DNA of 64,000 bases, taken from contig CAXXFV010000004.1 of assembly GCA_963674595.2 (NCBI GenBank), positions 320,001-384,000 of the forward strand, in the 5' to 3' direction. Source of the stretch: a bacterium (GTDB lineage Bacteria; Zhuqueibacterota; Zhuqueibacteria; Residuimicrobiales; Krinioviventaceae). Of this stretch, positions 46,384 through 56,314 are shown piece by piece. The stretch's first letter is position 1, and each line of letters opens with the position of its first letter. A program made the translations under genes and the position numbers. The notes below the pieces were generated by a model. It was not told where the DNA came from. It searched no databases and worked only from the letters and a program-made list of their open reading frames with translations.

Positions 46384-48951
46384 TTATTCGTTATACCAGG
46401 TAATAAGACCCATTTCATGTGGATTTAAAAAATTATCATTCTTTGGGTAAACACGAACCGACAAACCATGTTGACCGGTATGGTTGCAATTTACATCCGC
46501 TTTGTAAATAAAAATATTTTCCTTTTGCTCTGCAAGAGACATTACCATGGTTTGACCGTTAATGATCTGACCATGATAATCCAACTGACCATAAAAAACC
46601 TCTACATTAACATCATCAGGTAAAAGTCGTCCGAGAATTAAATCGGCATGAACCTGAATTTGATCACCAACTTTAACATTTGTTTTGTTAAAATGATTCA
46701 CGTTTTGGATTTTAATTTCATTCCAATATAGTTTTATATTGTTTTTCCATGCTAAAAGTTCCTGAACTGTTTTAAAATGGTCTGTGGAAAATTTTTCCCA
46801 GCTTTTATTACAGGGGATGTAAAATTTTTCGAGATAATTGCTAACCATTCTATTGGTGTTAAAAACAGGACACGTTTTTCGCATACTGTTTTTCATCATG
46901 GCAACCCATTGTCGTGGAATTCCGTTTCCTCGGCGGTTGTAAAAGAGAGGAATAACTTCATTTTCCAAAAGATGATACAATGCTTCCGATTCCATCATAT
47001 CCTGTTCTTCGGCATTTTGATAAGATTCGCCAAGACCTATTGACCAGCCCATATTGTTTTGATAGGCTTCATCCCACCATCCGTCGGGAATGCTGAGGTT
47101 TAGGGCACCGTTGGCTCCGGCTTTCATTCCGCTGGTTCCACTGGCTTCTCTGGGTCGAACCGGATTGTTAAGCCAAACATCCACACCCTGAACCAGGTAA
47201 GAGGCTGTTTGCATATCGTAATTTTCAACAAAGACAATATGTTGTCTAAATTCTTCAGAGCGGGCAATATTGGCAATGTCCCTGATTATTTTTTTTGCAT
47301 TATTATCCCGGGGATGGGCTTTTCCGGCAATAATTATTTGCACGGGCATGTCTTTATTTGTGAGGATTTTTAATAATCGTTCCTTATCTCTAAACAGCAG
47401 GTAAGCCCTTTTATACATTGCAAATCGACGGGCAAAACCTATTGTCAGCGCTTCCGGATTAAGAACTTCGTTTGCTTCTTCAATTGTTAGTGGATTTGCT
47501 CCGGAATTTTTTAATTGTTGTTTTAATTTATGTCTGGTAACAGCAACCAGTCTTTCCCGTCTGCGTTCATGGGTGCGCCAAAGTTCTTCATCGGGTATGT
47601 TTTGTATTCTACTCCATTGTTTTAAGTTGGTATAACTTCGGTACCATTTTGAACCGAGGTACCGGTTAAAAAGTTCGGCCATATCTGCAGATATCCAGGT
47701 TCTGATATGAACCCCATTCGTAATATGACTGATCGGTATTTCATTCGTCGGCACATTCGGCCATAAATATCCCCACATTTCCCGGGCTACTTTACCATGC
47801 AATCGGCTGACGCCGTTATAGAATCCTGCCATGTTAATGGCAAATATTGCCATGTTAAAGTGACCATTGGTTTCTTTCAGATGAACGCCGCCTAATTGAT
47901 GAAATTGTGTTGGTGAAAGATTAATAGATTTATAATAATGTGAAAGATAGGTATCCACAAGGTCGGGAGAAAACTCGTCTATCCCTGCCGGAACAGGAGT
48001 ATGCGTTGTAAATAACGTTCCGGCCCTTACTGTTTCTTTTGTTTGTTCAAATGATAAATTTTGATCTTTATTTTGTTCCATTAAAAATTTGGCTCGTTCA
48101 AGGGCCAGAAAAGCCGAATGGCCTTCATTCATGTGACAAACTGTCGGATGTATATTTAAAGTGGTCAATGCTCTGAATCCGCCAATACCAAGAATTATTT
48201 CCTGTTTAATACGCATTTCATTATCACCTCCATAGAGTTGAGATGTAATGATTTGGTCATCAGGATGATTTTCAGCTACGTTCGTATCCAGTAAATACAG
48301 CGAAATTCTCCCGACTTGGGCTCGCCAAACCTGCGCTTTTACATTCCGTTTTGGAAATTCAACAGAAATGGTTAATGGTAATCCGTCTTTTGTCTTTTCC
48401 AAAGTTATCGGCAAATTAAAAAAATCATTTTTTGGATAGATTTCCTGCTGCCATCCGTCTTTGGACAGATATTGTTGAAAATATCCTTCCTGGTAAAGCA
48501 GGCCGACAGCAACGAGCGGCAGGCCTAAATCGCTGGCTGATTTTAAATGGTCTGCTGCTAAAATTCCCAGACCACCTGAATAAATCGGCAGACCCTTTGC
48601 TAATCCATATTCCATAGAAAAATATCCAACCTTTAGGCTCTTGTGTTCCGGGTAGGTTTTATCAAACCATGATTGGCGATTCAAATGGTCGTACAGGTTT
48701 TCTTTAACCCTTTCCAAATGGGAGAGAAAACCATCATCTGTGGCCAGGTTTTCGAGCCTGTTCTGATTAATACTTCCTAACAAGGCAACAGGGTTCCGGT
48801 TACAAGATTCCCACAAGTTTGAATCAAGACGACGAAACAAGGCTTCAGAATCATGGTCCCAGGACCAGTACAAATTATAGGCAAGTTCTTTTAAAAAAAG
48901 TAATTCCTTTGGTAGTGAAGCAACAACCCGAAATTTTTCAATTTTATACAT
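46384..48951 (-). CDS. glgP: Alpha-glucan (glycogen) phosphorylase
   Basis: LAYNLYWSW, YFSMEYGL, YSGGLGILAADHLK, HMNEGHS, GFARRF, EASGTSGMK. Confidence 0.95.
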   Translation of the reverse strand: MYKIEKFRVVASLPKELLFLKELAYNLYWSWDHDSEALFRRLDSNLWESCNRNPVALLGSINQNRLENLATDDGFLSHLERVKENLYDHLNRQSWFDKTYPEHKSLKVGYFSMEYGLAKGLPIYSGGLGILAADHLKSASDLGLPLVAVGLLYQEGYFQQYLSKDGWQQEIYPKNDFFNLPITLEKTKDGLPLTISVEFPKRNVKAQVWRAQVGRISLYLLDTNVAENHPDDQIITSQLYGGDNEMRIKQEIILGIGGFRALTTLNIHPTVCHMNEGHSAFLALERAKFLMEQNKDQNLSFEQTKETVRAGTLFTTHTPVPAGIDEFSPDLVDTYLSHYYKSINLSPTQFHQLGGVHLKETNGHFNMAIFAINMAGFYNGVSRLHGKVAREMWGYLWPNVPTNEIPISHITNGVHIRTWISADMAELFNRYLGSKWYRSYTNLKQWSRIQNIPDEELWRTHERRRERLVAVTRHKLKQQLKNSGANPLTIEEANEVLNPEALTIGFARRFAMYKRAYLLFRDKERLLKILTNKDMPVQIIIAGKAHPRDNNAKKIIRDIANIARSEEFRQHIVFVENYDMQTASYLVQGVDVWLNNPVRPREASGTSGMKAGANGALNLSIPDGWWDEAYQNNMGWSIGLGESYQNAEEQDMMESEALYHLLENEVIPLFYNRRGNGIPRQWVAMMKNSMRKTCPVFNTNRMVSNYLEKFYIPCNKSWEKFSTDHFKTVQELLAWKNNIKLYWNEIKIQNVNHFNKTNVKVGDQIQVHADLILGRLLPDDVNVEVFYGQLDYHGQIINGQTMVMSLAEQKENIFIYKADVNCNHTGQHGLSVRVYPKNDNFLNPHEMGLITWYNE

Positions 48952-49087: not shown

Positions 49088-49367
49088 TTATTTGGTTTGC
49101 TATATTGTTTCAGATAACAAACTTTAAAAGAAATTATTTCATGGAATTTTTAAAAACAAACAGAATTTTTAATATATAAAAAATAAAAGGTTATTAGTTT
49201 AAATTCGGCCTGTATATTATGACAGGTCATGGTTGGAAGGAGGTGGTTATCCACAGAGTTTTTATTTGTATCGCTTTGAGTTATCGTATCAACAGGATAC
49301 AAGTTTCACTTTTTTCACAAGATAATACTAAAGAATTAAAATACGTTCATTTAACCTATCGGAGGGT

Positions 49368-50780
49368 GTGATGAAACGTTCATCAACCAGTCACATCTTT
49401 ATCATGTTTATTGTGGTACTATTTGCATCCACTGCAATCTTTGCTGCAGAGGGTGATTCGCTTTCAGTTACCGAAGGCAGCGGACTACCGGGTAACGGCG
49501 GATATGTTTTTTCTGTAAATCTTAAAAATGTAACAACCATTAAAGGATTATATTTTACGCTGCATGATTCCCCTGATTCTTTAACGGTAACCAATGTTGC
49601 AACAACAGCACGATCTGCCAATTTTCGGGTTTCTTTTACCCAAGTCGATGGATATTTAAAAGTTATAATGATCCCGCTTGATGGAGTTACCACGTTCCTG
49701 ACAGCAGGTGATGCTGCAATTTTAAATATTACGACAGGTGTCAGTGCCGACGCTGTTGGAGGAACAAAGGCCCTGCTGACCATCCAGGATGTTGTTTTAG
49801 CGGATGGTACAAACGGAGCTGTAACCAGCCACCAGGTTGACGGTAATTTTTGGTTTGGACAAAAGGGTGATGTTGTCTATAATTCTGTCGTAGATTTGTT
49901 TGATGTTTTGCGATTGATAGACATTGCGATCAGCCGTCCTCCGGCAGCAACTGAATATGAACGGTGGGCCGGTGACCTGGACAGCAACGGTTATATTGAT
50001 GTTGTAGACATCGGTGAAGCAATCGATCGTGCGGTGTCTGTTCCAGCGCCACCTGCTGTTAACCAACCGCTTAGTTTGGAATCGAATGGTTATGCAGAAA
50101 TTCAAATGCCTGCTTTGCCGACGAATTTTACGGGTAAAATAAACATACCTGTTAAAGTTAATACAACCGTACCTGTCACTGGTATGCAGTTTGAATTTAA
50201 TGTAGACTCTAAAAAATATATTATTGAACAACCTGAGCTTACTGAAGTTTCTGCAAACATGAGTATTGTTAGTAAACGTCAGGGTGAAAAGTATAAGGTA
50301 CTGATTTGCGGGACTGCAGGACAAATGCTGCCGGCCGGCGAATTAACAGTATTGAACTTGTCTGTTAATATAACGTCACCATTGGATCAGGCGGAAATAA
50401 TTGAGCTTAAAAATGTTTTAGCTGGAACCGAAAATGCATCCAAGATTGAAACAAATTTAAGCCAGGATGTTTCAGAAGTTGCTCATGTTCCCTCTTCCTT
50501 TGCACTTTTACAAAATAGTCCTAACCCGTTCAATATGTCTACAGAGATTACATATGATATTCCTAACATAAATCAGCAAGTATCTGTTAAATTGCAGATT
50601 TTTAATATGCAAGGACAGTTGATCCGTACGCTTGTTAATAGTAAAAAAGCGGCGGGCCGATATCGTGTCAATTGGAATGGAATGGATAAATTAGGCCATT
50701 ATGTTTCCTCCGGCGTCTATTTTTATAAATTAAGCGCTGGTGATGTTGTGCTTTCGAAAAAAATGGCGGTCATGAAATAG
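49368..50780 (+). CDS. Secreted cohesin-dockerin-cohesin protein with FlgD-Ig/T9SS-type C-terminal domain
   Basis: Signal peptide; cohesin-like sandwich; duplicated Ca-loop dockerin (GDVVYNSVVDLFD / GDLDSNGYIDVVD); Pro linker; second cohesin-like domain; LLQNSPNPFN..IFNMQGQLIRTL..WNG..SSGVYFYKL tail. Confidence 0.78.
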   Translation: MMKRSSTSHIFIMFIVVLFASTAIFAAEGDSLSVTEGSGLPGNGGYVFSVNLKNVTTIKGLYFTLHDSPDSLTVTNVATTARSANFRVSFTQVDGYLKVIMIPLDGVTTFLTAGDAAILNITTGVSADAVGGTKALLTIQDVVLADGTNGAVTSHQVDGNFWFGQKGDVVYNSVVDLFDVLRLIDIAISRPPAATEYERWAGDLDSNGYIDVVDIGEAIDRAVSVPAPPAVNQPLSLESNGYAEIQMPALPTNFTGKINIPVKVNTTVPVTGMQFEFNVDSKKYIIEQPELTEVSANMSIVSKRQGEKYKVLICGTAGQMLPAGELTVLNLSVNITSPLDQAEIIELKNVLAGTENASKIETNLSQDVSEVAHVPSSFALLQNSPNPFNMSTEITYDIPNINQQVSVKLQIFNMQGQLIRTLVNSKKAAGRYRVNWNGMDKLGHYVSSGVYFYKLSAGDVVLSKKMAVMK

Positions 50781-50822
50781 ATAGGTGTAAGAGGAAATAA
50801 CTTAAAAGTGAGGTAATTTAAA

Positions 50823-52616
50823 ATGAAAAACAAAAACATCCTCTCAATGTTTCTTTTTGTCCTGTCTATGGCCATAACCAGTTATGTCATGGCAGGCACA
50901 ATTGTTGATGATTTTAATCGTTCGACTCTGGGTGCAAATTGGACGGCAGACCCCGAGTATGTAATCGATACAAATACAATGTCCAATAATTCAACGACCT
51001 CTTCATGGGGGTTTTTAGCGGTTTATAACGCCATTATCAATCCTATGGAAGTATCTTTCCGATGGGCTGTAGGTGGTGACGTTGAGGGAGCCAATTCCGG
51101 CGGTGTAGCAATTTATTTAAATTCCGCATCAGTCAATGCAACAGGATATTTTGTTTTGCGCCGATATAGTAAAATTGATTTACATCCTATTGTGAATGGT
51201 ATAGCTGATAGAACAACAGTTCTTGGCACCACCTCGGCAACCCAGGCAACACCCCAACCCGGTGATGTTATTAAGGTCATTCCAACCACTGATGCCAGTG
51301 GTCACCATTTTGATTTGTATGTAAATGGTGTTTTTGACGGAAGAGTCAGTGATGCCACCAAAACTTATGCTAATGTAAGTAACGATTTATATAGTGGTGT
51401 TGTATTGTATGGAAATCGAAATAATAATATTGATGATTTTACAATTAAAGCGCCGACAATTACTGTTACAGCCCCCAATGGCGCCGAACTGTGGCTTGTA
51501 AATTCGGCCCATAACATTACCTGGACGTCTTCGGATTTTTCAGGAAATGTCAAAATAGAATATTCTGTTGATGCCGGCACATCCTGGAGTACAATTGCAG
51601 CATCTGTTACCAACTCTGGATCATACACCTGGACAATTCCAAATGCTCCTTCTGCTTCAACTGTGGTCCGTGTTTCTGATGCAGCTGATGGTTTTCCTTC
51701 TGATGTTAGTAATGCTGTTTTTGAAATTGTGCCGGAAACAGAAGATATTCAGGTTGTCAGTCCAAATGGTGCTGAAAATTGGATCGTCAACACCAATCAA
51801 ACAATTCAATGGAATGCCACAAGTATTATACCTTTTGTAGCTATAGATTATTCTGTAGATAATGGCGTATCCTGGACATTAATCGTTGCCAGTACAGCGA
51901 ATGATGGAAGTTATACCTGGACAGTACCGGCGCAAATTACCACTCAAGCCCTGGTCCGTGTACGCGATGCATTGGATTCATTACCTACTGATGTAAGCAA
52001 TGCTGTTTTTAGTATTTCTGCTCTTGTTTCTTTGGAGGTACCGGCTGCCAGTGGACAACCTGGTACAGGTGGTAATGTTGTTACTGTAAACATGAATAAT
52101 CAAACAAATATACGAGGAGTATTTTTTAGATTGACCGATTTGCCGGATTATTTAACTGTTGAAAGTGTAACTCCCGTTGGTCGGGCATCTACGTTTACTG
52201 TTGATTCAGATGAAACCGGTGGCTATTTGCAAGTCCTTTTGGTAAGTATGTCCGGTGCTGTCATTCCTACAGGAAGTGGCCCGATTGTTCAAATCAGTTA
52301 CCAAATTGATAATGCTGCACCTTTTGGAACGACTTCCGGTATGAATTTATCTCATGTAACATTGAGTAATGCAAACAGTGAATTGGTTGTGCCGGAATTA
52401 GTAAATGGTGATTTTCATTATGTTCTGTCAGGTGATATGGACGCTGATGGTGATGTTGATTATTCAGACGCTGATGGCGGTGACATTGACCGTATGCTGG
52501 AAATAATTATGGGAACCGGTGCTGCTGTATCTGATTATGAAATGCTTGCCGGCGACCTTGATAATGATGGTGATATTGATCTTTATGATGTTTTGAATGT
52601 TTTTGATTTGATCTAA
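50823..52616 (+). CDS. Secreted protein: N-terminal beta-sandwich, two Ig-like repeats, cohesin, C-terminal dockerin
   Basis: Signal peptide; DDFNR..LGANW N-domain; two PNGAE.W..YSVD.G.SW..GSYTWT.P..SDVSNAVF repeats; cohesin-like; GDMDADGDVD / GDLDNDGDIDLYD. Confidence 0.78.
   Translation: MKNKNILSMFLFVLSMAITSYVMAGTIVDDFNRSTLGANWTADPEYVIDTNTMSNNSTTSSWGFLAVYNAIINPMEVSFRWAVGGDVEGANSGGVAIYLNSASVNATGYFVLRRYSKIDLHPIVNGIADRTTVLGTTSATQATPQPGDVIKVIPTTDASGHHFDLYVNGVFDGRVSDATKTYANVSNDLYSGVVLYGNRNNNIDDFTIKAPTITVTAPNGAELWLVNSAHNITWTSSDFSGNVKIEYSVDAGTSWSTIAASVTNSGSYTWTIPNAPSASTVVRVSDAADGFPSDVSNAVFEIVPETEDIQVVSPNGAENWIVNTNQTIQWNATSIIPFVAIDYSVDNGVSWTLIVASTANDGSYTWTVPAQITTQALVRVRDALDSLPTDVSNAVFSISALVSLEVPAASGQPGTGGNVVTVNMNNQTNIRGVFFRLTDLPDYLTVESVTPVGRASTFTVDSDETGGYLQVLLVSMSGAVIPTGSGPIVQISYQIDNAAPFGTTSGMNLSHVTLSNANSELVVPELVNGDFHYVLSGDMDADGDVDYSDADGGDIDRMLEIIMGTGAAVSDYEMLAGDLDNDGDIDLYDVLNVFDLI
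51453..52017 (+). repeat. Tandem duplicated ~95-aa Ig-like domain within the 597-aa protein (approximate bounds)
   Basis: ITVTAPNGAELW..VSNAVFEI versus IQVVSPNGAENW..VSNAVFSI. Confidence 0.8.
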
Positions 52617-52625
52617 AACAATATA

Positions 52626-52652
52626 ATAGGGGCAGGTTTTTTCTGCCCCTAT
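52626..52652 (+). terminator. Intra-operon stem-loop (terminator or mRNA stabiliser)
   Basis: ATAGGGGCAG-GTTTTTT-CTGCCCCTAT. Confidence 0.65.
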
Positions 52653-52678
52653 ATATTTAAAAAGATAGGTTTCATTGA

Positions 52679-53455
52679 ATGAGAAAAATAATCCCTATAT
52701 TTTTGTTTTTATTTTCTTCTGTTTTACTGGGATCAGATGCTTTTGTGAGTGTTAACGGTGGTTCGGGATCTCCGGGTTCAGAAAATAATATAATTTCTGT
52801 TTCATTGACAAATAGCGTTCCGGTTAAAGGTATCCAGTTTAAAATAACGGATATTCCTAATTATCTGATACCGGATACTATTCTGGTTTCATCTCGAACA
52901 GAAGGTTTTAGTATTAATTTTAATGAGCTGGAAGAAGATAACAGTTTAATTGTAATTATGATTTCTTTTAATAAATTGATTCCTGTGGGCAGTGGTACAA
53001 TAATGGATATTTATTATCGTGTTTCCAGCAGTGCGGAACCAAACCAGACATTGCAGCTTGTCATTGATGAGTTAAAAGTAACAGGAGAAGAGAATAACTA
53101 TCTCGATGCAGAATCATCCAATAGTAAATTTAAAATTTCAAGTATTACGGTTGTTGAGGATGATGATATTATTCCTGAGAATTTTAAGCTTTGTCAAAAT
53201 TATCCGAATCCGTTTAATCCGACAACTCGGATATCTTTTTCAATTCCTGAAAGCAATTTTGTCAAATTGGAAATTTTCAATTCATTGGGGCAAAAAGTTC
53301 GTACGCTTTTAAATGGAAAAATGAACAGAGGGCAGCATGTTGTGCAGTGGGACGGAATAAACGACTATGGAAATTTTGTGCCGGCCGGTACCTATTTTTA
53401 TAGAATTAACGCAGGAGAATTTACAGACACGAAAAGATTGTCTTTAATTAAATAA
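52679..53455 (+). CDS. Secreted single-cohesin protein with FlgD-Ig/T9SS-type C-terminal domain
   Basis: Signal peptide; cohesin-like domain paralogous to those of the two upstream genes; LCQNYPNPFNPTT..IFNSLGQKVRTL..WDG..AGTYFYRI. Confidence 0.8.
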   Translation: MRKIIPIFLFLFSSVLLGSDAFVSVNGGSGSPGSENNIISVSLTNSVPVKGIQFKITDIPNYLIPDTILVSSRTEGFSINFNELEEDNSLIVIMISFNKLIPVGSGTIMDIYYRVSSSAEPNQTLQLVIDELKVTGEENNYLDAESSNSKFKISSITVVEDDDIIPENFKLCQNYPNPFNPTTRISFSIPESNFVKLEIFNSLGQKVRTLLNGKMNRGQHVVQWDGINDYGNFVPAGTYFYRINAGEFTDTKRLSLIK

Positions 53456-53474: not shown

Positions 53475-54293
53475 CTACCTGGGAAGTGTAGTTAATATTT
53501 TTTTGATATTGGAAAATTCGGGATCATTGGTTCGTAAAGTGGATTTGACAGGGACTTTGGAAAGTTCCTGTCTCACTTTACGATAACGTGAAGAAGTTGC
53601 CGGATGCGTTGTTAACAACAGGGCAACACTTTCAATGTCATCTGTTTCTTTCTTACCGATTATTCTCAATATGTCCAAAAGTCCATCCGGTGAGTAATTT
53701 GTTTTCCAGGCATAATTAATTGCTTTTGCATCTGCGAGGAATTCCTGGTCCTCCGGATAATCAAGGATTGTACCATCTGAATAAAGATGTTCTATTATTT
53801 GAGTGGCAATTTCCGGGTTCTCACCGATAACTGATTGTGCGGCAAAAGCAAATGCATATTTTTCTGCTATTCTGTCAACAGCATTCCGTTCGGCAATATG
53901 AACAATTTCGTGGGCAATAATCAAAGCAATTTCACTCATATTTTCAGAAGCTTCAATTAATCCTCTGAAAAGATAGATGGAACCGCCAGGCAGGGAAAAG
54001 TGGTTTATATCATCTTCGTTTATGACATAAACAGAATAGGTGAGTCCGTCCCAATCTGATTGGGTACCAATTTCTCTGGCAATTTGTGTAAAATAATCTG
54101 TTATCTGTTGGTTTCGAACAATTTTAAAATGTTTTGGCATCTGCTTTGTAAGAGAACGACCCAGTTCCAGTTCTTCGTCAATAGAAACAAACTTGATTTT
54201 ACCCGAGTTTTTTGAACCTGCGCATGAAAAATAAAGCGTTATACTTAACGCAAACAGGAGGAGCATTGTTTTTTTTATCACCATCTTCACCAC
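53475..54293 (-). CDS. M48-family metallopeptidase lipoprotein
   Basis: Lipobox-like YFSC, EELELG, INHFSLPGG.IY, AHEIVH, E..AD, THP. Confidence 0.85.
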   Translation of the reverse strand: MVKMVIKKTMLLLFALSITLYFSCAGSKNSGKIKFVSIDEELELGRSLTKQMPKHFKIVRNQQITDYFTQIAREIGTQSDWDGLTYSVYVINEDDINHFSLPGGSIYLFRGLIEASENMSEIALIIAHEIVHIAERNAVDRIAEKYAFAFAAQSVIGENPEIATQIIEHLYSDGTILDYPEDQEFLADAKAINYAWKTNYSPDGLLDILRIIGKKETDDIESVALLLTTHPATSSRYRKVRQELSKVPVKSTLRTNDPEFSNIKKILTTLPR

Positions 54294-54298
54294 TGTTT

Positions 54299-56314
<2,016 letters not shown>

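Follow-up and report, generated by a model that had tools for sequence, protein, structure and literature searches.

Cohesin and dockerin modules in a conserved three-gene operon of an uncultured Gram-negative phylum: a putative lectin-bearing surface assembly

Cohesins and dockerins are familiar above all as the paired modules that hold together the cellulosomes of Gram-positive bacteria. Here we describe three genes, all on the + strand at positions 49368-53455 of a 64,000-nucleotide window (the whole stretch analysed, positions 320,001 to 384,000 of contig CAXXFV010000004.1, GenBank assembly GCA_963674595.2), from a bacterium of the family Krinioviventaceae, phylum Zhuqueibacterota. The encoded proteins, P1, P2 and P3, share a paralogous cohesin module. 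Judging from their sequences, we give somewhat better than even chances to the reading that they form a conserved, non-enzymatic cohesin-dockerin assembly at the cell surface, in which P1 and P3, anchored through the bacterium's type IX secretion system (T9SS), would hold the lectin-headed P2, the whole acting as a multivalent adhesin. A first-pass annotation of this DNA had described three co-oriented proteins with a common cohesin-like domain; the open reading frames (ORFs) and the motifs that it quoted are present, and BLASTP supports the paralogy (E 1e-14 to 1e-24). Its domain orders also stand, namely cohesin-dockerin-cohesin-C-terminal domain (CTD) for P1, beta-sandwich, two immunoglobulin-like (Ig-like) domains, cohesin and dockerin for P2, and cohesin-CTD for P3, with the refinement that the sandwich of P2 is of the ConA-like lectin or carbohydrate-binding module (CBM) type.

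Cohesins, dockerins and the lectin-like head

The Pfam Cohesin family (PF00963, cut-off 24.1 bits) matched P1 at residues 50-159 (28.3 bits) and P2 at residues 403-529 (24.1 bits), and gave no match in P3 alone, either with the whole protein or with the excised stretch. Among family members it was found in 36 of 46 for P1, 19 of 37 for P2 and 7 of 25 for P3. The P1 alignment comprises P1 and 45 relatives, with a 296-aa fragment, a 518-aa form, two partial sequences and CTD-only matches omitted; that of P2 comprises P2 and 36 of its 39 relatives, with a 99%-identical copy and two fragments omitted. The P2 orthologs come from a region-restricted search; the whole-protein HMMER search was dominated by the Ig-like repeat (16,990 matches), with a single ortholog (P0220) among the 150 matches listed. 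In pairwise BLASTP comparisons, cohesin 1 of P1 shares 34% identity with the P2 cohesin (E 2e-24) and 27% with the P3 cohesin (E 2e-14), and the latter two share 26% (E 1e-17), cohesin 2 of P1 being more distant from the others (21-24% identity, E 5e-5 to 6e-3).

AlphaFold2 models based on the ortholog alignments had a predicted local distance difference test score (pLDDT) of 86.8 and a predicted template modelling score (pTM) of 0.69 for P1, and of 89.5 and 0.47 for P2. In VIA comparisons, whose cohesin fold matches cover cohesin 1 of P1 and the cohesin of P2 and were taken from the whole-protein models, residues 25-164 of the P1 model matched the type I cohesin 5nrk_A (Z 18.9, root-mean-square deviation 2.0 A, 137 residues aligned) and residues 400-534 of the P2 model matched the type I cohesin 5nrm_A (Z 19.1, 1.9 A, 133 residues). 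Type II cohesins in the same lists scored far lower (Z about 11-13); thus, the fold of both modules is type-I-like. Both models show the nine-stranded jelly roll of cohesins. Searches against solved structures with the single sequences of P1 and P2 gave nothing useful, and family profiles alone produced matches. The sole cohesin matched by the P3 family profile was that of Archaeoglobus fulgidus (2xdh_A, 1.2e-4), and hhalign aligned the P3 family with that of P1 (probability 100, E 9e-49), P3 corresponding to P1 minus the block of dockerin and cohesin 2.

A hidden Markov model (HMM) of cohesin 2 of P1 matched the cohesin of P2 (5e-8), that of P3 (4e-6) and cohesin 1 of P1 (2e-5), its family profile matched the NagJ cohesin (2ozn_A, E 0.022), and its counterpart in a distant relative (L088) was recognised by Pfam Cohesin at 9e-11; the second domain of P1 is therefore a divergent cohesin. 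The motifs on which the first-pass annotation relied are a general cohesin signature, the same columns aligning to the CipA cohesin (3kcp_A). The shared domains are real cohesins, for which dockerin binding is predicted. Across the entire 6.6-Mb genome (17,599 ORFs), a P1-family cohesin HMM found only P1, P2 (2e-28) and P3 (7e-19), so that the cohesins of the trio form a closed subfamily apart from the other cohesins of the genome.

Dockerins were also called in P1 and P2, and at the level of the family this identity holds. With a limit of E <= 0.01, Pfam Dockerin_1 (PF00404) is recognised in 21 of the 46 rows of the P1 family and in 23 of the 37 of the P2 family. Among solved structures, the P1 family profile matched the CipA dockerin in 3kcp_A (4e-5) and the ScaB dockerin 4uyp_B (1.2e-3), and the P2 family profile matched the dockerins 4uyp_B (1.4e-4), 2ccl_B (9.5e-4) and 1ohz_B (4e-3). 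The two dockerins of the trio share 42% identity (BLASTP, E 7e-10), and an HMM of the P1 dockerin matched that of P2 at E 1.5e-5. Each has two 12-residue calcium-type loops with conserved positions 1, 5, 9 and 12 (a duplicated D-x-D-x-D/N-G...D...D), each is modelled as three helices with high pLDDT (91-94 in P1), and the tandem loop-plus-helix arrangement of dockerins is seen in both, with calcium binding predicted. At the family level, these sequence comparisons identify real dockerins. In both proteins the dockerin is fused straight to the last cohesin strand with no linker at all. The first dockerin repeat of P2 contains a five-residue acidic and glycine insertion (residues 550-554, window 52470-52484); no fewer than 90% of the 37 rows in the alignment have no residues here, and the insertion is present in the 99%-identical database copy.

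The head of P2 (model residues 24-211) was closest in VIA to the C-terminal domain of the central fibre protein gp20 of mycobacteriophage Douge (8zdp_v, Z 18.2), followed by the lectin domain of galactocerebrosidase (3zr5_A, Z 16.1), CBM66 (4b1m_C, Z 14.2) and the legume and ERGIC-53 lectins (Z about 12.5). These best structural matches are non-catalytic, and the model has the beta-sandwich of ConA-like proteins; Pfam gave a weak match to Laminin_G_3 alone (E 0.12). The head is a ConA-like lectin or CBM-type domain, with putative carbohydrate binding. In the stalk between head and cohesin, Pfam recognised Reelin_subrepeat-B (28.1 bits) and, below its cut-off, Kre9_KNH; the same Ig-like repeat occurs in up to 38 copies in giant proteins among the matches listed.

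The first-pass annotation had recognised no glycoside hydrolase or peptidase domain in the three proteins. This was confirmed with Pfam and NCBIfam, which found no glycoside hydrolase, lyase or peptidase family in P1, P2 or P3 or in the 46, 37 and 25 rows of their ortholog sets. Neither glycoside hydrolase nor CBM3, the marks of a cellulosome, was found in the three operon proteins and seven further dockerin proteins scanned, whose domains include FG-GAP/ASPIC, GDSL lipase and S8 peptidase.

Type IX export signals, conservation and genomic setting

P1 and P3 combine a T9SS type A CTD above the TIGR04183 cut-off of 23 with a signal peptide, as is characteristic of T9SS type A cargo. All three N-termini have a hydrophobic, signal-peptide-like segment (Sec-type for P1 and P3), assigned by eye from the sequence without a predictor. 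The CTD is present in all 46 P1-family and all 25 P3-family members and in none of the 37 P2-family members, and Pfam and NCBIfam scans found no CTD family in P2. The search for T9SS genes, which covered SprA, PorU and PorV, identified SprA (852.7 bits, cut-off 200) and PorU (879.7 bits, cut-off 420) in the genome, together with a PorV-like protein just short of its cut-off (239 against 250 bits). The view of the CTDs as export marks is upheld by these results. PorV-like barrels are numerous in this genome (21 matches, one near the cut-off), and an HMM of the P1-family CTD gave 221 domain rows at E <= 0.01, which points to a very large predicted T9SS secretome.

Some 48 full-length proteins are related to P1 (38-52% identity); their sources name them as KSB1 or unclassified bacteria. 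Full-length P1 orthologs were located at 27 genome loci, three of which end too early for the trio to be judged; at all 24 loci with enough downstream DNA, the order and strand of P1, P2 and P3 are kept, and six of these have two tandem P2 paralogs. The trio is thus conserved across KSB1-type genomes. An alpha-glucan phosphorylase gene lies upstream at 23 of the 27 loci, and an M48 peptidase gene and ligA (53475-56311 in the window) lie downstream at 15 of the 24. This conserved housekeeping neighbourhood argues for old vertical inheritance rather than a mobile island; likewise, base composition gave no signal of a foreign island, the GC content being 0.37-0.40 throughout the region. In the phylum, P1 matches were found in 40 of 167 genomes (E <= 1e-40), including all 8 and all 14 genomes of two sister families.

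The most distant P1 matches (29-32% identity; genomes G129, G147, G097 and G120) are fused proteins in which a variable non-catalytic head precedes cohesin, dockerin, cohesin 2 and CTD, and each is followed by a P3-like cohesin-CTD gene. The heads are a BNR/sortilin-like propeller, an fn3-Kre9-BACON arrangement or an unassigned stretch of 250 aa. Since these distant forms keep it, the conserved core appears to be a cohesin-dockerin-cohesin 2-CTD protein plus a cohesin-CTD protein, with exchangeable binding heads. One of these genomes (G097) has both the fused pair and an ordinary trio.

A genome-wide survey recovered further cohesins and dockerins. Outside the locus, six further proteins contain a total of seven PF00963 matches, five of them above the cut-off; five of the six proteins bear a T9SS CTD, and the sixth is lipoprotein-like. 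PF00404 gave eight matches outside the locus. In six large proteins, among them FG-GAP/ASPIC proteins, an S8 subtilase, a GDSL lipase fusion and two of unassigned type, the dockerin forms the very C-terminal end and a CTD is absent, so that throughout the genome CTDs occur on most cohesin proteins and on none of the dockerin-only proteins. The P1-dockerin HMM found P2, a fragmented S8-dockerin gene on contig C10 and, weakly, one C25 protein; it had no match at E 0.01 to the six canonical dockerin proteins, whose dockerins are therefore of a different subtype. These six proteins (contigs C18, C7, C23 and C15) have GDINQDGEITTTDYT.WYN repeats of their own, and a stretch 'RNHL.IMS' is conserved ahead of the dockerin.

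The S8 subtilase gene at C10:6204-7848 (- strand), which ends in a dockerin, is split into at least four frame pieces (253, 172, 80 and 74 aa) and is either a pseudogene or affected by assembly indels. The P1-dockerin HMM matched its dockerin about as well as that of P2 (E 1.5e-5 and 6e-6). To judge from this similarity, its product may be, or may formerly have been, an enzymatic cargo of the trio cohesins. At two other loci, cohesin proteins are neighbours. At C25:58922-62736, a 597-aa protein of P1-like layout (cohesin, dockerin, about 200 unassigned aa and CTD), in which Pfam recognises canonical forms of both modules, precedes a 671-aa protein composed of cohesin, PKD, InlB B-repeat and CTD. 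At C23:213152-221504, one of two adjacent proteins, of 363 aa, has a lipoprotein-like signal (LSGCSS) and its cohesin at the C-terminus; the other, a VWA/PKD/BNR protein of 2,403 aa, has a T9SS CTD as well as two cohesin matches.

At the locus itself (Table 1), spacers of 42 bases between P1 and P2 and 62 bases between P2 and P3 separate the genes. Upstream lies the divergent alpha-glucan phosphorylase gene (window 46384-48951), with a gap of 416 bases to P1, and downstream the convergent M48-type peptidase gene ends 20 bases past P3. A GGAGG sequence at 49362-49366, 5 nt before the ATG at 49371, makes this ATG the likelier start of P1. The hairpin between P2 and P3 is followed on the + strand by a poor T tract (only ATATTT), and it scored as terminator-like on the - strand only, where no gene ends; its role may be that of a weak terminator or of a stabiliser of the mRNA. 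Promoter-like sites (19, with 18.5 after shuffling) and terminator-like sites (4, with 3.2 after shuffling) were about as frequent as in shuffled DNA.

Table 1. Features of the three-gene locus, in window coordinates
Feature	Position	Strand	Remarks
P1 gene	49368-50780	+	470 aa; signal peptide, then two cohesins flanking a dockerin, and a T9SS type A CTD
P1 cohesin 1, aa 27-163	49446-49856	+	Pfam Cohesin and fold match
P1 dockerin, aa 164-226	49857-50045	+	EF-hand-like loops D168..D179 (position 3 is Val) and D203..D214 (canonical)
P1 cohesin 2, aa 236-378	50073-50501	+	divergent cohesin
P1 T9SS type A CTD, aa 379-470	50502-50777	+	TIGR04183 36.6 bits, FlgD_ig 40.2 bits
P2 gene	50823-52616	+	597 aa; signal peptide and lectin-like head, then two Ig-like domains, cohesin and terminal dockerin; CTD absent
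P2 ConA-like lectin/CBM-type head, aa 25-211	50895-51455	+	VIA fold matches
P2 stalk of two Ig-like repeats, aa 212-399	51456-52019	+	Pfam; all-beta in model
P2 cohesin, aa 400-534	52020-52424	+	Pfam Cohesin at cut-off and fold match
P2 dockerin, aa 535-597 (extreme C-terminus)	52425-52613	+	loops D538.. and D578..D589 (second canonical)
GC-rich hairpin in P2-P3 spacer	52626-52652		perfect 10-bp inverted repeat, 7-base loop
P3 gene	52679-53455	+	258 aa; signal peptide, cohesin, T9SS type A CTD
P3 cohesin, aa 20-153	52736-53137	+	family profile and homology to P1
P3 T9SS type A CTD, aa 170-258	53186-53452	+	TIGR04183 40.3 bits

A proposed surface assembly and its alternatives

In the surface assembly that we favour, P1 and P3 would cross the outer membrane by way of the T9SS and would either stay attached to the outer surface or come off it, presenting their type-I-like cohesins there. 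The C-terminal dockerin of P2 would plug, in a calcium-dependent manner, into a cohesin of P3 and/or P1, and the cohesin of P2 and the dockerin of P1 could permit additional head-to-tail links. The resulting multivalent array of lectins would stick the cell to a glycan-bearing particle, to a polymer or to a neighbouring cell.

Several results weigh against this model. The dockerin call of the first-pass annotation does not extend to the window's own sequences by the Pfam measure: the excised stretches scored below the PF00404 cut-off of 22.9 (P1 14.3 bits, E 0.047; P2 7 bits, E 9.3), the genome scan with this family at E 0.01 missed both, and position 3 of the first dockerin loop is non-acidic in P1 and in many orthologs. 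The outward residues of the dockerin-binding face of the cohesins (strands 8-3-6-5) are not enriched in conservation over the opposite face (P1 0.519 against 0.550, p 0.56; P2 0.565 against 0.634, p 0.86), although this test is crude, with strand limits from DSSP and in/out orientation by hydrophobicity, without coordinates, and is weak either way. Given the lack of a linker in P1 and P2 and the fairly compact P1 model, contacts between cohesin and dockerin of the same chain are possible. With no CTD, P2 lacks an evident route across the outer membrane, a point that the first-pass annotation did not take up. A language-model look-alike search with the P2 head returned ConA-like accessory families, some of them enzyme-named (3keto-disac_hyd); the overlap of features was low (at most 139 of 256), making these leads only, and a catalytic head is unlikely. 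Finally, in the window's own family a P1 ortholog was found in 6 of 18 genomes, and the 12 in which this query found none are mostly at least 90% complete, so that the system is dispensable.

One alternative is that the cohesins of the trio mainly dock other dockerin-bearing cargo, for example secreted proteases, and that the three genes provide the scaffold for a complex of enzymes of non-cellulosomal type. The eight dockerin matches elsewhere in the genome, among them the GDSL lipase fusion and S8 subtilase proteins, would fit such a role, as would the dockerin of the C10 subtilase gene, and a scaffoldin-plus-enzymes model has been proposed for Cloacimonadota (PMC8542988). However, the six canonical proteins, with their different dockerin subtype, could be served by the other CTD-bearing cohesin proteins of the genome, the C10 gene is in at least four frame pieces, and the linkage of P2 to P1 and P3 at every locus that could be judged argues that P2 is the main partner. 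We consider the enzyme scaffold unlikely. To a similar degree we doubt that the dockerins are satisfied in cis or are mere calcium-stabilised spacers, the three products being independent beta-sandwich proteins of the surface or periplasm. The linker-less junctions, the compactness of the P1 model, the even conservation of the 8-3-6-5 face and the lack of a known exit for P2 from the periplasm would all suit this explanation, and a flexible 15-residue linker before cohesin 2 could allow the P1 dockerin to fold back onto that module. However, strand 9 of a cohesin lies in the sheet opposite the binding face, and a dockerin joined to it without a linker would be poorly placed for its own cohesin. 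Furthermore, the multi-domain model of P2 is not compact, the calcium loops of both dockerins are kept under selection, and P3, a lone anchored cohesin without a dockerin, has stayed beside dockerin-bearing genes over class-level divergence.

A further possibility concerns the geometry of the complex. P2 combines a single cohesin with a single dockerin, both of the closed subfamily, and could form a head-to-tail polymer by inserting its dockerin into the cohesin of the next P2, with the lectin stalks as side arms and P3 and/or P1 at the base. The tandem P2 paralogs and the nature of P3, a socket without a plug as expected for the base of a chain, are in line with such a filament. However, cellulosomal dockerins as a rule do not bind the cohesin of their own type of protein, and the distant relatives in which head, cohesin and dockerin are fused to cohesin 2 and CTD, every subunit thus being anchored, fit a short complex better than a long filament. 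Such a polymer seems to us quite improbable.

As for the exit of P2, a search for secretins of a type II route found two secretin-family frames (153 and 75 bits, GspD cut-off 351), which neither support nor exclude another export path. The T9SS transports folded proteins and requires a folded CTD, according to a review (PMC9251779), so that, in physical terms, a cohesin protein with a CTD could conceivably carry a passenger. The dockerin might then be an export address in place of a CTD, P2 folding in the periplasm, plugging into a cohesin of P1 or P3 and leaving as a passenger through the SprA translocon, a known carrier of folded proteins, and the same could apply to the dockerin-only proteins of this and other genomes of the Fibrobacterota-Chlorobiota-Bacteroidota (FCB) group. 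We regard such hitch-hiking as a long shot. If true, the cohesin-dockerin pair would serve type IX secretion besides surface tethering. Hitch-hiking of this kind through the T9SS was not described in the titles and abstracts found by our literature search.

Related systems and implications

The surface assembly proposed here has much in common with cellulosomal type I pairs, such as ScaB Coh6 and the Cel5 dockerin of Acetivibrio cellulolyticus (5NRK/5NRM) and CipA and Xyn10B of Clostridium thermocellum (1OHZ, 2CCL): the cohesin fold and signature, dockerins with a duplicated calcium loop and helix, and the logic of anchor plus adaptor. Unlike cellulosomes, the trio has no glycoside hydrolase or CBM3 scaffoldin, its cargo is a lectin-like head instead of an enzyme, it belongs to a Gram-negative organism with a T9SS CTD as the anchor instead of S-layer homology (SLH) domains or sortase, and cohesin and dockerin are fused without a linker in one protein. 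Outside cellulosomes, the A. fulgidus cohesin 2XDH, with a non-cellulose use, is among the best fold matches (Z 18.3 for both the P1 and the P2 models). Proteins of A. fulgidus carry cohesin and dockerin in one chain; to our knowledge, their function is not known. Unlike them, the trio is bacterial, linked to the T9SS, organised as a conserved three-gene operon and equipped with a lectin head. Peer et al. reportedly surveyed cohesin and dockerin modules outside cellulosomes in 2009. The NagJ/NagH pair of Clostridium perfringens (2OZN, 2O4E, 2JH2), which supplied the only sequence matches of cohesin 2 of P1 among solved structures (E 0.02-0.03), is likewise a non-cellulosomal pair joining secreted proteins; in contrast to the trio, it is Gram-positive, joins glycoside hydrolases and uses another dockerin subtype.

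Two cases in the FCB group are closer. 'Ca. Stygibacter' (Cloacimonadota) has a CTD-anchored scaffoldin of 3,755 aa with tandem cohesins and CBMs, which recruits GH18, GH57, S8 and C25 enzymes, its partners being signal-peptide proteins with C-terminal dockerins and no CTD, all deduced from sequence (Front Microbiol 2021, PMC8542988). The division between cohesin proteins with a CTD and dockerin proteins without one is the same, and here it extends genome-wide. The trio differs in consisting of three small proteins, with no enzyme and with both modules in each adaptor; like ours, the Cloacimonadota case is built on sequence analysis. In the Chlorochromatium epibiont, Cag_2037 and Cag_2038 are a cohesin-dockerin pair for which surface tethering was proposed and an AlphaFold 3 interaction model presented (bioRxiv 10.64898/2026.03.19.712371). 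These are also neighbouring genes, one for an Ig-repeat stalk protein that ends in a dockerin and the other for a protein with its cohesin at the N-terminus, but the proteins are giant, are exported by a type I secretion system (T1SS/RTX), contain a catalytic alginate lyase/epimerase-like domain and use a type II cohesin. Our literature search found no paper on KSB1 with cohesin.

The novelty implied by the first-pass annotation is reduced by these precedents: non-cellulosomal modules have long been known, and a CTD-anchored scaffoldin had been proposed from sequence in another FCB phylum, Cloacimonadota (PMC8542988). What is new here is the non-enzymatic, lectin-bearing makeup; cohesin-dockerin modules outside cellulosomes and CTD-anchored scaffoldins were known already.

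The operon is a clean, small and vertically conserved case of cohesins and dockerins in an uncultured Gram-negative phylum, where the glue of the cellulosome appears to mount a lectin-type head on T9SS-anchored proteins without any enzyme. With four cohesins and two dockerins, each module being shorter than 150 residues, it offers a tractable set for the rules of specificity outside cellulosomes. If these parts do not bind each other, many 'orphan' cohesin and dockerin annotations in FCB genomes would need another reading. The most valuable lead is the sharpened question of how the CTD-less, dockerin-tailed proteins of organisms with a T9SS reach the surface. If dockerin proteins do ride on cohesin carriers, they would add a new mode to type IX secretion and open up a new source of orthogonal display parts.

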